IMG/VR virus record: IMGVR_UViG_3300028800_000057
DNA length: 64,000 nucleotides
DNA from: a virus
Lineage: Duplodnaviria > Heunggongvirae > Uroviricota > Caudoviricetes
Strand: one strand, 5' to 3'
The notes beneath the pieces are model-generated. The model worked only from the letters and a program-made list of their open reading frames with translations. It ran no database searches and had not been told where the DNA came from. Position numbers and translations under genes: made by a program. Positions 5,815-63,279 of this stretch are shown here, one piece after another. Numbering within the stretch: the first letter of the stretch is position 1; every line of letters starts with the position of its first letter.

Positions 5815-5842
5815 TTGAGTTATAGCCCCCTCACACGTAATA
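5815..5842 (+). promoter_or_regulatory. Conserved phage promoter (TTGAGT-N16-GTAATA); predicted TSS at the A of ATG 5849 (leaderless)
   Basis: Matches the 13-member promoter family; the -10 ends at 5842, and 7 nt further is position 5849, the A of the ATG. Confidence 0.55.
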
Positions 5843-5848
5843 GAGAGT

Positions 5849-6238
5849 ATGGCTGACAGAATCATTGTTGTAGAAAGCGAAAGAGGCGGTCCAGGGTATC
5901 GAATCCAGTGGGAGATCAATACTGACGGGGATACCGACCTGGGTGCTTACTGTGGGCAATCAAGAAAGAAGCCTTCAGATGAGATCCCGAGTGACCATGA
6001 AGCGCGAGAATTCTGGGCTTACGAACGGGCCGGGTTTCAAGTTATAGAAGAGGGCCCAAAGGGATATTGTGGACATGATCGTATCGGATTCTGGTGGGAA
6101 TCTAAGAGTCATGCTACAGCCGCTCTTGCTAAAGTCAGAGCGCTCGCCAAAGTAACCTTGAGTGGGGTACCTTGGCCTGATTGGGCTACGCAGGCGTTAG
6201 CCGCCGGTTGGAAGCCTCCGAAGGGTTGGAAGCCCTGA
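5849..6238 (+). CDS. Hypothetical protein
   Basis: 129-aa ORF starting exactly at the predicted leaderless TSS. Confidence 0.5.
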   Translation: MADRIIVVESERGGPGYRIQWEINTDGDTDLGAYCGQSRKKPSDEIPSDHEAREFWAYERAGFQVIEEGPKGYCGHDRIGFWWESKSHATAALAKVRALAKVTLSGVPWPDWATQALAAGWKPPKGWKP

Positions 6239-6240
6239 GC

Positions 6241-6795
6241 TTACTTCTTCGAGTCCTGAATCACCTGTTCGAACGAGGGTAGCTTCGATGGGCTCGGTGC
6301 TTGAGATATCTCGGGGAGGGCATGCACAAGACGAGATTCAGGGGCAGCCTGAGCCGCGCTGAACGCTACTCTTGGTTGCTCTGAAGCGCTTGCTGCTTCC
6401 TCGGGACCCACAACTTCCTCAATGGGGAGTGGCTCCTTCTTCTTAGGCTTGTAGAAGGTGGACACCTTGGGTGGTAGGGCTGGAGTCGTTGAAGTACTAG
6501 TAGAAGTCGAAGTATTTGTGAGGGCTGCAGTCTTAGAGGCGGCCATACCGTTTAGATATGCCCAAACTTCTTTGACATCCGAGTGGGTATCTTGGATGGC
6601 CGCTGCGTTCTCCTCTACCTTTTTTCCCAACGTCTCGTAGATCGCTTTTTGGCCTGTCTGGTCATAGGCTTTGATCAAGCCGATGACCGAGGTAATGAGA
6701 GCTACCACGATTGGGGCGAACCCTAGGACTATCTTTGCTTTAGACCAGAAAGGGGAGATGGGGGGAGATTCTGAGTCGGCCATACACCCCAGCAA
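6241..6795 (-). CDS. Predicted membrane-anchored protein with Ser/Thr-rich linker
   Basis: N-terminal TM helix (IVLGFAPIVVALITSVIGLI), then TSTSTSTSTT and a Pro/Ala-rich tail. Confidence 0.45.
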   Translation of the reverse strand: MLGCMADSESPPISPFWSKAKIVLGFAPIVVALITSVIGLIKAYDQTGQKAIYETLGKKVEENAAAIQDTHSDVKEVWAYLNGMAASKTAALTNTSTSTSTSTTPALPPKVSTFYKPKKKEPLPIEEVVGPEEAASASEQPRVAFSAAQAAPESRLVHALPEISQAPSPSKLPSFEQVIQDSKK

Positions 6796-6878
6796 TACAC
6801 CAAAGGAAAAACTGTTGAGAATTAGGAACTTGAAACGTAATAGCCTATGAGAGCCTACGGGCCTAGTGAGAGCACAAT

Positions 6879-7109
6879 ATGAATGACCGACCTGATACCT
6901 TTGAAGGAGAGCCTGCTTATGTCCAAGATTTCTGGGACAGAGCCAAAAATGGGGGCGCGGAAGTTGACGAAACCGTATACAAGTTCACTATCACCAAGGA
7001 AGATTCAGAGAAGTACCCTGAGTTGAAACCGGGTATGCGCTTGCTACTCGCCAAGTCACCCGATGGGTTCGTATTTCATGACCTGCTACCCCCCAGATTG
7101 ACTAACTGA
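6879..7109 (+). CDS. Hypothetical small protein
   Basis: 76-aa ORF; placed only by its position in an otherwise ORF-free gap. Confidence 0.35.
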   Translation: MNDRPDTFEGEPAYVQDFWDRAKNGGAEVDETVYKFTITKEDSEKYPELKPGMRLLLAKSPDGFVFHDLLPPRLTN

Positions 7110-7129
7110 CCTAACTACTACGATTTTAG

Positions 7130-7157
7130 TTGAGACCAGAGAGCGCCGTGCGTAATA
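7130..7157 (+). promoter_or_regulatory. Conserved phage promoter (TTGAGA-N16-GTAATA) upstream of ATG 7176
   Basis: Family consensus including the CGTGC element upstream of the -10; leader about 12 nt. Confidence 0.5.
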
Positions 7158-7175
7158 CCCTCTACGAGAACTGTA

Positions 7176-7445
7176 ATGAACTCTGATACCATTCTACCTG
7201 AAGGAATAAGCACGCTGAGGCCACAAGCGATCGACCACAACGACTTCATTTGCGGTTACCGCCTGGCAAGAGTAGCATCGATTGACGTTATCAACTCTAT
7301 GCAAGGACACTCGACGTACTCTTTACGAATGGGCTACATTGCTTACATAGCCTTATCCACTAACAACTTCCCAGACATCGACTGTATTAAAGCAGCTGAG
7401 TTCGCTGAAGGTTTAGGTCTGGGGGAAAGCCTGAAACATGACTGA
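7176..7445 (+). CDS. Hypothetical protein
   Basis: 89-aa ORF downstream of a family promoter. Confidence 0.45.
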   Translation: MNSDTILPEGISTLRPQAIDHNDFICGYRLARVASIDVINSMQGHSTYSLRMGYIAYIALSTNNFPDIDCIKAAEFAEGLGLGESLKHD

Positions 7446-7947
7446 GCAGTATCCAAAACATCAGATTGAGGATGAGATCGAAGTTCGTGTTAGTGACCAA
7501 CACCACCGCGGAACCATCACTGGCATCGCATATTCTTGCCCCCTTTACATGTACATCGTTCAACTCAACGACCCAGTAGAAGGTGAGTTTGGACCCCAGA
7601 CTGGCTTGTACGTTCCCGAAGGGATCTTGATAGCCAAGCCCGATGTTGAGTCTCTTTCCATGTGGACCACCGTTGGTTCATACACCTTCGTGGATGAGAC
7701 TGAAGACGGTGAAGTTTTTGCGCTTGACGTCCAAATTGGTATTGCTGAGGAGGGTGATGCTATCTACGTCGTTTCGAATGATACTGCAGATGGCAAGCAA
7801 CCCCTCGAGTTTACCTCCTTCGGTAGCCATCAGGAAGCTCAGGAGTATGCTCTCGAGTACATCAAAGAGAACCACGCGGCGGCCCCAGGTGAGAATGCTG
7901 AGCAATACTTGGCCAGAGTCAGCAGCGAGTGTGATTCGGAGAACTAA
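7438..7947 (+). CDS. Hypothetical acidic protein
   Basis: 169-aa ORF whose ATG overlaps the upstream stop. Confidence 0.45.
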   Translation: MTEQYPKHQIEDEIEVRVSDQHHRGTITGIAYSCPLYMYIVQLNDPVEGEFGPQTGLYVPEGILIAKPDVESLSMWTTVGSYTFVDETEDGEVFALDVQIGIAEEGDAIYVVSNDTADGKQPLEFTSFGSHQEAQEYALEYIKENHAAAPGENAEQYLARVSSECDSEN

Positions 7948-61825: not shown

Positions 61826-61827
61826 CG

Positions 61828-62271
61828 CTAGTTCGTCCTTTCACCATTGAAAACACGCTTGATGGTTCGAACAGCCCACCTCATAGCCTCTTTCACTGGC
61901 ATCACGTAGAACTCAGCCTTACAGGTGGCACACTTCTTGGAGAACATCCAAGTCTTAAGGTGAATGGTATTGACCAAGACGCCCTTGCATCCGGGGACCT
62001 CGCAAGGCGGACCCACTAGCTCGAACATGGGGGAAGGACATAGCTTGCTGAACCCCTCCCCGTTGATTGTGTCGTCTGTGTATAAGAAGGGTTGACCACA
62101 GGACACACAGTTATCGTATCTCGATAGCTTGAGTTCATCCGATTCAATCCGAGAGACGAGTAAGAGTCCGTCCTCACACACAGGACACTTTGACTTATAT
62201 GCGCTGTCCTCACCCCAACGTTCGAGTTCAGCATGCGCGACGGCTTTGCCTAAGATAGGTACCTTGCCCAA
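61828..62271 (-). CDS. Multi-zinc-ribbon protein
   Basis: CPVCEDG...CVSCGQPF...CEVPGCKG...CATCKAEF (four CxxC pairs). Confidence 0.45.
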   Translation of the reverse strand: MGKVPILGKAVAHAELERWGEDSAYKSKCPVCEDGLLLVSRIESDELKLSRYDNCVSCGQPFLYTDDTINGEGFSKLCPSPMFELVGPPCEVPGCKGVLVNTIHLKTWMFSKKCATCKAEFYVMPVKEAMRWAVRTIKRVFNGERTN

Positions 62272-62402
62272 TAGCTAGAGTAGTTGCCCAAAAGCTCGGA
62301 ATTGTACTCCTTGGCCGGTGAGTAGCCCACTCGGTAGCCCACCTACAGAAAGGTACTCGCTTGACAGCCAGCCTTTGGTAGGGGAACCTTGACCTACCTA
62401 TC

Positions 62403-62876
62403 ATGGGATACGTCGTTTTACCTAACGGTTCGATCGTTGTAGATTCTCTCGCAGCAGCTCGTGAGCTGCAGAAGATGATCTTGAGCGAAACCAAGGAACA
62501 TCCCGAAGTACCTTTGGTGGTTGTTCAAAAAGAGGCCAGTCCCTCGGAGCCAACGGTTGCTCCTCTCGAAGCTCCGCCCTCTGGACGCTGGGATGCCACG
62601 TGGAAGTCCTATTACGATCTACTCCGAGATCCGAGTCGCTCCAACCAAAGGAGTGTGCTGGCTTTGATCAAAGGTTCTGGGATCAAGGGCCTAACGGTTC
62701 AGGATCTCGCTCATCAACTCGGTGAGGGTGGTAATTCTGTTGGAGGAATGGTTGGCGCCATCAGTAAGTCATCCAGGAAAGTAGGCCTTCCACCTGAACA
62801 GGTCATTGTGAGGCATCCAGATGGACGCTTTACCGCTGGGCCATTACTCGAACGATTCGATCCACCGGAGCCCTGA
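62403..62876 (+). CDS. Hypothetical protein
   Basis: 157-aa ORF, followed by a hairpin at 62917-62949. Confidence 0.4.
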   Translation: MGYVVLPNGSIVVDSLAAARELQKMILSETKEHPEVPLVVVQKEASPSEPTVAPLEAPPSGRWDATWKSYYDLLRDPSRSNQRSVLALIKGSGIKGLTVQDLAHQLGEGGNSVGGMVGAISKSSRKVGLPPEQVIVRHPDGRFTAGPLLERFDPPEP

Positions 62877-62916
62877 CCATGACAAGCTAACTTACTCGTA
62901 ATGCAACGGTCTTAAA

Positions 62917-62949
62917 CGAAAGAAAGCCTCGGAGGGAGGCTTTCTTTCG
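62917..62949. terminator. Hairpin CGAAAGAAAGCCTC-GGAG-GGAGGCTTTCTTTCG after gene 62403-62876
   Basis: Read directly; no clean U-tract on either strand. Confidence 0.4.
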
Positions 62950-63093
62950 CCGGACTAACGGTCAGTCTTTCGCAGGGCCAGCCCGCTTGTCCAACACCCT
63001 AACCGGCAAAGGTTTGAGGTGATCAGACCTTCCCTCCATTTCGCCGGGCAAGCAAGGACTTTTTCTTGTCCCTAGCCCAATTGGGAGGCGCCA

Positions 63094-63183
63094 TGGAAAA
63101 TGGGGCTCTTCGGGCTGACTTCGTGTCCCCACTTCGTCTTCGATGGCTGAGGTGGTGGACTCACTCGAAGTCTCATGCCTGAT
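63094..63183 (+). CDS. Candidate 29-aa small ORF (MENGALRADFVSPLRLRWLRWWTHSKSHA) with a strong SD
   Basis: The SD GGGAGG lies 4 nt upstream of the ATG; the stop is followed directly by a terminator at 63191-63229. Confidence 0.25.
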
Positions 63184-63190
63184 CGTTCGG

Positions 63191-63229
63191 CCTGGTAACT
63201 ACCTTTCCGGTAGTTACCAGGTACTTTTT
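63191..63229 (+). terminator. Rho-independent terminator (13-bp perfect stem CCTGGTAACTACC / TTTCC / GGTAGTTACCAGG, then TACTTTTT)
   Basis: Read directly. Confidence 0.6.
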
Positions 63230-63251
63230 CCAAGTAGGTGCCTCTAGTAGG

Positions 63252-63279
63252 TTGAGATCTGCCAACCTCAAACGTAATA
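63252..63279 (+). promoter_or_regulatory. Conserved phage promoter (TTGAGA-N16-GTAATA); leaderless for ATG 63286
   Basis: -10 end plus 7 nt is 63286. Confidence 0.55.

Follow-up and report, generated by a model that had tools for sequence, protein, structure and literature searches.

The window analyzed here, i.e. the whole 64,000-nucleotide stretch of the Caudoviricetes record IMGVR_UViG_3300028800_000057, carries 14 copies of a two-block motif with the consensus GTTGAGAtcTG-N-cTCGYGCGTAATA, which is termed class A in the following. On balance, we favor the reading that class A sites are phage-specific sigma-type promoters giving leaderless or short-leader mRNAs, and that a small sigma factor encoded in the same window, sigma 1, is their likeliest reader. 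The promoter and the leaderless readings are both well supported, by the sequence of the sites and by comparison with related phages; which sigma factor reads class A is the least certain step.

The class A motif and its conservation

The exact pattern TTGAGN{16,17}CGTAWTA matches the 64-kb window 14 times; 100 shuffles of it that preserve the dinucleotides gave no match (mean 0.00, maximum 0). TTGAG is present in all sites and CGTAATA in 13 of them, the exception being the site at 24467 with CGTATTA. A two-block position weight matrix trained on the sites, a scan which the original prediction had called for, returns just these 14, with scores of 27.5–36.5 bits. Since the range of 12–27 bits is empty, class A is a discrete class with no tail of weak matches. 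The 13 copies listed in that prediction were all found again with the same coordinates and strands, but 13 is not the total, as a fourteenth copy is located at 6815–6842 (+). A CTCGYGC block had also been attributed to eight copies. This count did not hold: the block is exact in five sites and is found with at most one mismatch in seven, and the shorter GYGC immediately precedes GTAATA in 10 of the 14. The sites are listed below, where +n means that the A of the ATG lies n nucleotides (nt) after the end of the motif, i.e. after the last A of GTAATA, and the sizes of the gene products are given in amino acids (aa).

Class A sites
5815–5842 (+): ATG 5849, 129-aa gene, +7
6815–6842 (+): ATG 6879, 76-aa gene, +37, leadered; absent from the first list
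7130–7157 (+): ATG 7176, 89-aa gene, +19
10667–10694 (+): ATG 10704, 379-aa gene, +10
12072–12100 (+): ATG 12107, 89-aa gene, +7
14153–14181 (+): ATG 14188, 89-aa gene, +7
24467–24494 (-): variant -10 block CGTATTA; ATG 24459, 132-aa gene, +8
27418–27446 (+): ATG 27453, 91-aa gene, +7
38471–38498 (-): overlaps the 3′ end of open reading frame (ORF) 38473–38904; ATG 38464, 167-aa HD-domain phosphohydrolase, +7
42865–42892 (-): ATG 42852, 132-aa gene, +13
45320–45347 (-): ATG 45264, 143-aa gene, +56, leadered
54057–54085 (+): ATG 54127, 97-aa gene, +42, leadered; a purine-rich stretch lies 5′ of the ATG
56755–56782 (+): ATG 56789, 90-aa gene, +7
63252–63279 (+): ATG 63286, SWIM-domain protein, +7

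All 14 sites point at a gene start 7–56 nt downstream on the same strand, and 13 of them are intergenic; the remaining one, 38471–38498, covers the last codons of the upstream ORF. The genes downstream are mostly small and of no known function, apart from the HD phosphohydrolase and the SWIM protein. For the 167-aa HD-domain protein the family match begins at residue 1, and the start codon at 38464 is therefore supported. Automatic gene callers set some starts inside the promoter; a public caller, for example, chose TTG 12089 instead of ATG 12107.

Relatives of the phage were reached through a protein database and exact-protein look-ups, and later through an alignment of sigma 1, with about 10–20 kb covered per relative. 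The loci L005–L008 are the surroundings of homologues of the 379-aa protein encoded downstream of the site ending at 10694. Homologues of this protein are 74, 61, 51, 45 and 40% identical to it; those of L005–L008 (74, 51, 45 and 40%) have the motif at syntenic places, and these loci hold 6, 6, 4 and 3 class A sites, respectively. The motif also occurs in L025 and eight times within 20 kb of the IMG/VR contig UViG_3300038415_000126 (L035), and it was not found in 14 unrelated control loci. In alignments of orthologous regions the spacer changes, but there is no variation in GTTGAG, in CGTAATA or in the gene itself from its ATG onward. The four-way alignment of the 12072 region, in which the blocks and the coding region are kept and the spacer varies, is an example, and a five-way orthologous alignment is available for the 10667 region.

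In the 33 sites pooled from the window and L005–L008, the information content is 1.8–2.0 bits in the blocks and 0–0.4 bits in the spacer, and TTGAGA and GTAATA are separated by 16 nt in 23 sites and by 17 nt in 10. Such retention of the blocks at orthologous positions, with a drifting spacer, indicates that the blocks are under selection. Taken together, the two blocks, the 16/17-nt spacer, the upstream and co-oriented placement and the orthologous conservation argue for the promoter reading given in the original prediction.

We propose that host core RNA polymerase carrying a phage-encoded sigma factor would bind the -35-like GTTGAGA and the extended -10-like gCGTAATA, 16 or 17 nt apart, and start transcription about 7 nt past the last A of GTAATA. 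At half of the sites this start would be the A of the ATG itself, giving a leaderless mRNA; three window sites would give leaders of 1–6 nt and four would give leaders of 19–56 nt. On a leaderless mRNA the ribosome would bind the 5′-terminal AUG directly, without a Shine-Dalgarno sequence. The specificity factor would most likely be the small FliA-like sigma encoded at 4082–4714.

Distance to the start codon, leaders and hairpins

The ATG lies at +7 in 16 of the 33 pooled sites, seven in the window and nine of the 19 in the relatives, and all of these are ATG starts. The seven window copies for which this spacing had been claimed (motif ends 5842, 12100, 14181, 27446, 56782, 63279 and 38471) all show it, and the three said to be within 1–6 nt of it have their ATG at +8 (24467), +10 (10694) and +13 (42865). 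The six bases between the -10 block and the ATG differ from site to site (GAGAGT, GATGGC, CTGAGT, GCGGGT, CTGGGT and others). The base just before the ATG is C or T in 16 of 16 sites, and the base at -2 is G in 13 of 16; a pyrimidine at -1 with an A at +1 is the usual preference at transcription start sites. At most +7 sites there is no other in-frame start between the ATG and the preceding in-frame stop, which is often the TGA inside TTGAGA. The spacing is kept and the intervening sequence is free, as predicted if transcription starts at the A of the ATG, and we infer that the sites are promoters with this A as their start.

The +7 spacing is kept in the relatives at individual genes as well. 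The orthologues of the 5815 site (L005:2736–2763 and L006:3666–3694) differ in their discriminator bases but again have the ATG at +7, and the orthologues of the 14153 site (L006:14113 and L007:15162) also have it at +7. Together with the pyrimidine before the ATG and the general lack of an alternative upstream start, this supports the leaderless geometry originally proposed.

The stronger claim, that the class depends on leaderless initiation, goes too far. Four of the 14 window sites have leaders of 19–56 nt, and leaderless initiation is therefore not obligatory for class A. These leaders are conserved gene by gene across the relatives, as is the leaderless class. The orthologues of the 6815 site in L005–L008 all keep a leader of 24–37 nt, and the 7130 orthologue in L005 again has its ATG at +19, the gene beginning MNS... 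being always 19 nt away. In the group of the leadered 76-aa gene, four of five phages have an ORF of 5–11 codons whose ATG lies 4–5 nt after GTAATA, and which ends just before the main ATG or overlaps it (6846–6869 (+); L005:3188–3223; L007:6428–6445; L008:244-). It is possible that this short upstream ORF is itself leaderless and is coupled to the main gene.

At the +7 sites the -10 block ends 6–7 bp before an ORF that starts with AUG, leaving no room for a Shine-Dalgarno sequence; the four long-leader sites in the window differ in this. In Deinococcus, a -10 element 6–7 bp upstream of the ORF has been found experimentally to give a leaderless mRNA (PMC12340547), and the transcripts of the Thermus phages YS40 and Lalka27a are mostly leaderless, with a phage-specific late consensus (bioRxiv 10.64898/2026.04.20.719267). 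Class A resembles these systems in the distance from the -10 element to the start codon, with a transcript predicted to begin with AUG, and resembles the two phages also in having a consensus of its own. In contrast, the -10 element in Deinococcus-Thermus is TANNNT or TAGGGT, read by a possibly modified host polymerase, whereas class A has CGTAATA together with a GTTGAGA -35 block.

Four of the 14 sites (those ending at 10694 and 56782 and those beginning at 42865 and 38471) fold strongly, with z between -3.4 and -6.3, the loop holding the -10 block and the 3′ arm containing or adjoining the ATG.

Hairpins at class A sites
10680–10716 (+): hairpin of the 10667 site, enclosing the -10 block and the ATG, z = -3.41
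56771–56804 (+): hairpin of the 56755 site, z = -3.54
42846–42884 (-): hairpin of the 42865 site, with an 8-bp inverted repeat (TACTCGTG/CACGAGTA) on both sides of the -10 block, z = -3.93
38450–38489 (-): hairpin of the 38471 site, the strongest of the set, z = -6.26

Stems of at least 6 bp between the spacer and the downstream sequence of the same site are present at 5 of the 14 sites, compared with 2.7% of chimeric pairs (permutation p < 2e-4); the excess of complementarity in the relatives is not significant (p = 0.13). A universal hairpin model was dropped, as only 4 of the 14 sites fold significantly and the relatives give no significant excess. The hairpins are a real feature of a subset of sites, and one reading is that they would occlude the AUG in read-through RNA.

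The same folds could be taken to mean that the motif is a translation-controlling RNA hairpin, or else a repeated operator or "stoperator"-like binding site, and not a promoter. The four strong folds with GTAATA in the loop and the excess over the chimeric controls speak in favor of this, as do the repeated asymmetric operators and start-associated sequences that mycobacteriophages carry by their start codons. These mycobacteriophage elements are single blocks of 13–17 bp which bind a repressor or include the ribosome-binding site. Class A shares with them the repetition of an oriented, conserved motif in short intergenic regions beside start codons, but has two blocks with promoter spacing and no complement to the Shine-Dalgarno sequence. 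Moreover, 10 of the 14 sites have no significant structure, and the trend in the relatives is not significant, as given above. The genes on either side of two of the four hairpins are divergent, an arrangement in which no transcript should arrive from upstream. An RNA model also leaves the fixed -35/-10 spacing and the TTGAGA block outside the hairpin unexplained, and no Rfam family matches the motif. We regard this as the most improbable of the readings weighed here.

Candidate readers of class A

The window encodes two sigma factors, and class A has what is expected of promoters read by a phage-encoded sigma: sigma genes in the phage and a uniform, specific and clade-restricted consensus upstream of phage genes.

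Sigma factor genes
4082–4714 (+): sigma 1, small two-domain protein of the sigma-70 family, FliA/WhiG-like, 210 aa, regions 2 and 4
8434–9282 (-): sigma 2, RpoH/RpoS/RpoD-like, 282 aa, regions 1.2 to 4.2

Judging from its orthologues, sigma 1 probably starts further downstream than 4082, close to the residues KVEELDLL. The best alignments of sigma 1 are with FliA and WhiG, and it has YARRRIKGHIIDEIR where FliA has YAGIRIRGAMLDEVR. Promoters of sigma-28 read (-15)GCCGATAA(-8), and in the open complex of Pseudomonas sigma-28 R80 contacts -12G, D87 contacts -13C/-12G and Y76 stacks on the flipped -11A; group 3 sigmas have no region 1.2, and for this reason position -7 is not flipped and shows no conservation (PMC12784957). 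When the A of the ATG is taken as +1, the class A -10 block reads C-13 G-12 T-11 A-10 A-9 T-8 A-7. Y89, R93 and D100 of sigma 1 are the equivalents of Y76, R80 and D87, and they are invariant in all sigma 1 homologues, which are 50–92% identical, are present in relatives including contigs of 442 kb and 435 kb, and are better conserved than the neighboring proteins. Sigma 2 did not turn up beyond the closest relatives, but the motif is spread across the clade, and sigma 1 is for this reason the better candidate of the two.

Compared with sigma-28 promoters (FliA/WhiG; TAAA-N15-GCCGATAA), class A likewise has an extended -10 element whose upstream part is rich in GC. If the A of the ATG is +1, its invariant C-13 and G-12 fall in the sigma-28 register, and -7 and -6 are not conserved; a T at -7 is missing in both. 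Each has a candidate or known small sigma without region 1.2, and sigma 1 keeps the equivalents of Y76, R80 and D87. There are differences as well: the class A -35 block is GTTGAGA and not TAAA or TCTAAAG, class A continues after CG with TAATA where sigma-28 promoters have ATAA, and it would drive phage genes instead of flagellar ones. Sigma 1 itself scores below the FliA/WhiG family cut-off (87.8 vs 189.6 bits) and lacks a full sigma-3 domain.

Several observations weigh against the picture of leaderless promoters read by sigma 1. TTGAGA resembles the -35 elements of group 1–3 sigmas (TTGACA/TTGAAA) and not the TAAA of sigma-28; sigma 1 has a short linker in place of the sigma-3 domain of FliA; and its gene is not at the syntenic position in the fetched part of the 225-kb contig L006, which keeps six class A sites. 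The four long-leader sites belong here as well. In addition, the sequence upstream of the sigma 1 gene contains a conserved class-A-like element without the CG, GTTAAGG-N16-T(A/T)ATACC (4040–4081 (+); L005:1060–1100; L007:4265–4305), which would fit autoregulation and would equally fit another factor that reads both.

Phages L026–L028, whose sigma 1 homologue is 40% identical, have neither class A nor the GGTGTA motif described below within about 8 kb, and use classical GAAGGAGG ribosome-binding sites. L026 (1650–1711 and 2330–2386; the sequence is the same in L027 and L028) has a repeated TTTCGGG(A/C)ATAAGAAC about 25 nt upstream of its ribosome-binding sites, which may be a sigma-28-like -10 element for its own sigma.

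Could the RpoH-like sigma 2 be the reader instead? In sigma-32 promoters a TTGAAA-like -35 element is followed, about 13–15 nt downstream, by an extended -10 element rich in GC, and the class A spacing, written as TTGAGA-N14/15-GCGTAATA, is like this architecture. Sigma 2 retains the region 4.2 readout helix of sigma-70 (TRERVRQLESRAKRKL vs TRERIRQIEAKALRKL), which fits a -35 of the TTGA type, and its region 2.4 is substituted at the positions that read -12 (the equivalents of Q437 and T440 are A and Y), which fits a non-canonical -10. However, close homologues of sigma 2 (67–72% identical) occur in the nearest relatives only, the next being bacterial RpoH-like proteins of 41–46% identity, so that it looks like a recent, lineage-specific acquisition. 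It is not at the syntenic site in L005–L007, and tblastn gave no match in any fetched relative locus (about 10–20 kb each), including L035 with its eight class A sites. Furthermore, sigma 2 keeps part of region 1.2, for which a T at -7 is expected, and no such T is conserved in class A. A role of sigma 2 at these promoters is therefore doubtful in our view. The nearest cellular homologues of sigma 2 that carry names, few in number, are from Myxococcota (Polyangiaceae or Myxococcales), which is a weak hint at the host.

The host primary sigma deserves similar attention, because strong early promoters can be uniform, as in T4 or T5. Class A resembles housekeeping sigma-70 promoters (TTGACA-N17-TATAAT) in having blocks at about -35 and -10 with a 16–18-nt spacer. 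TTGAGA agrees with TTGACA at five of six positions, the register TAATAN gives a spacer of 17/18 nt with T-12 and A-11 present, and three sites pass a sigma-70 consensus filter where -7 happens to be T; small genes of no known function, like those downstream of class A, are also typical of early regions. Nevertheless, neither register yields TANNNT. In TAATAN, only 2 of the 14 sites have a T at -7, and the GTAATA register is without A-11 and T-7. Position 5 of the -35 block, where the primary sigma prefers C, is G in 31 of the 33 pooled sites and never C, CGTAATA hardly varies, to a degree not seen in host promoters, and class A has an extra conserved GC-rich block from -19 to -13. The window shows no enrichment of canonical sigma-70 promoters, with 13, 16 and 16 found vs 17.0, 14.3 and 14.6 expected under a consensus that may not be that of the host; intrinsic terminators are not enriched there either. 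The missing T at -7, which had already been pointed out, and the lack of enrichment both speak against host sigma-70 promoters, and reading by the host primary sigma seems unlikely.

A phage-encoded RNA polymerase, either single-subunit or non-canonical multisubunit as in phiKZ and AR9, is rather less likely still. The relatives reach 225–512 kb, and some phages of this size have polymerase genes of their own (PMC7598289); in addition, the very high conservation of the motif is like that of phage-polymerase promoters. However, two blocks with a variable 16/17-nt spacer are the signature of sigma regions 2 and 4, unlike T7-like contiguous promoters or the short AT-rich elements of phiKZ/AR9. 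A T7-like promoter is conserved without a break over about 20 bp through +1, but class A is conserved in two parts and varies at positions -6 to -4. Among the large ORFs of the window, the only sequence searched for this purpose, there are no polymerase-like proteins, and two sigma genes are present. Group 4 or extracytoplasmic function sigmas can be compared as well: their promoters have AAC in the -35 and CGT in the -10, and class A has CGT in its -10 block and no AAC in its -35 block.

The closest parallels to promoters read by sigma 1 are found among the coliphages. The sigma gp36 of phiEco32 reads a single element, tAATGTAtA, with starts 6–8 bp downstream, and gp47 of phage 7-11 reads GTAAtg-N16-aCTA (PMC8948821). 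The likeness lies in a phage sigma gene accompanied by a consensus that is specific to the phage, varies very little and precedes clusters of phage genes, in a start 6–9 bp past the element, and in the existence of both single-element and bipartite types. The consensus sequences differ from class A, and the class A elements are placed for leaderless mRNAs. Also, these are coliphages of about 77 kb with mapped starts and in vitro proof, whereas the class A starts are predicted. As we read it, class A is a new example of a known strategy, phage-sigma promoters combined with promoter-adjacent leaderless expression, and not a new kind of system.

The GGTGTA motif and the phage clade

A second motif, GGTGTA, is the most enriched hexamer of upstream regions in the window, with 14 occurrences observed vs 1.4 expected. 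In the arrangement GGTGTA-N8-10-ATG it is found 12 times in the window vs 1.28 expected, making it a more abundant leaderless-type motif than class A. It is preceded by pyrimidines (yyyGGTGTA) and has no -35 block. The motif is conserved at orthologous positions in all relatives; it occurs in L005–L008 and L032–L035, and a 512-kb IMG/VR contig has many copies of it. If +1 is the A of the ATG, the GTA of GGTGTA occupies the same positions as that of class A, -12 to -10, and the two motifs then have a common GYGTA core. Leaderless geometry is hence a property of the phage clade and not of class A alone, since the GGTGTA motif shares it. The TGTA core and the geometry also resemble the phiEco32 element.

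Examples of GGTGTA
1809–1814 (-)
4022–4027 (-)
10389–10394 (-)
20258–20263 (-)
30695–30700 (-)
35988–35993 (+)
40017–40022 (+)
44774–44779 (-)
47408–47413 (-)

We tentatively envisage a soil and wetland clade of huge phages, with contigs of up to 512 kb, that would run on two promoter classes with GYGTA in common as their core (-14 to -10), namely GCGTA-ATA with GTTGAGA in class A and yyyG-GTGTA without a -35 in class B. The first gene of nearly every transcription unit would be read from a 5′-terminal AUG, leaderless expression being the default mode, and the host would belong to none of the phyla known for frequent leaderless initiation. The hairpins at some promoters would hide the AUG in read-through RNA, so that translation would be licensed only by the gene's own promoter. 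This wider scheme is a possibility that we hold with little confidence.

Megablast of 20 kb of the window against 50,697 phage records gave no nucleotide match, and the only protein matches are weak ones to the huge-phage assemblies LR756500, LR756501 and LR756503. The ORFs of the window are small, dense and mostly without Pfam families. Among what they encode are a weak terminase match, a tail-fiber-like N-terminus and an 882-aa protein whose homologues are found in huge-phage assemblies. The G+C content of the phage is 51%. Soil and wetland-type metagenomes hold identical or related sequence on contigs of up to 442 kb, and the contigs of the relatives measure 225–512 kb. In our reading, the window comes from the genome of an uncultivated jumbo or huge phage. 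Neither tRNAs nor Rfam matches were found, and scans of IMG/VR with single proteins (the 379-aa protein and sigma 1) gave no matches. Concerning the host, the TnpB gene of a relative was uninformative, with at most 48% identity to proteins from many phyla, and a literature search for leaderless transcription in Myxococcus returned nothing relevant. The relatives carry mobile elements that the window does not have, namely an intein (Hint + LAGLIDADG) within an AAA ATPase gene and an IS605-type TnpB gene (L005:4984–8274; L008:6365–7585).

If confirmed, these results would provide a regulatory map, with promoter classes, start sites and corrected start codons, for an uncultivated clade of huge phages, and a new sigma-promoter pair with an unusual -10 element. 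Such a pair could show how minimal sigmas melt DNA without reading -7, and it is a possible orthogonal expression part. Promoter-adjacent leaderless expression, documented mainly in Deinococcus-Thermus, Actinobacteria and their phages, would be extended to another phage lineage.

Further recurrent sequences accompany the two motifs. A perfect palindrome at 49132–49153, TGTTGGTGTAAATACACCAACA, holds two GGTGTA elements face to face. Right after the gene of the 882-aa protein, at 30708–30738 (-), lies a terminator-like hairpin of 13 bp that is rich in GC. The GGTGTA at 30695–30700 (-) comes within the next 8 nt and precedes the following gene, the whole forming a compact terminator-promoter junction. 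Sequences of the type AATTGAC/TTGACAATT are enriched upstream of genes (ACAATT, 6 vs 0.6 expected; TTGACA, 8 vs 1.3), often a few nt 5′ of GGTGTA or just 5′ of the class A -35 block, and are conserved in the orthologues; they may be the binding site of a regulator.

Examples of AATTGAC/TTGACAATT-type sequences
10647–10663 (+)
17946–17962
20268–20280 (-)
35957–35969 (-)

Genes inside operons are often preceded by GGTGATCTG-ATG, as at the junctions 18387–18398, 18920–18931 and 34445–34456. The GGTGATC in this arrangement is complementary to the 3′ end of 16S rRNA, upstream of the classical anti-Shine-Dalgarno core. Coupled internal genes thus seem to use an extended Shine-Dalgarno variant, and first genes seem to be leaderless.

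Finally, 16 of the 112 predicted proteins end in the same tail, (S/T)RYER(P/K/D/G)(P/W)VI-stop, and are otherwise unrelated by BLASTP. The motif occurs once elsewhere in about 16,000 residues. The tail could serve as a C-terminal tag for sorting, packaging or degradation, and examples of the ORFs that carry it are as follows.

ORFs with the (S/T)RYER tail
1819–2349 (-)
2349–2696 (-)
17986–18396 (+)
18396–18929 (+)
18929–19531 (+)
33992–34447 (-)
34448–34957 (-)
48150–48593 (-)

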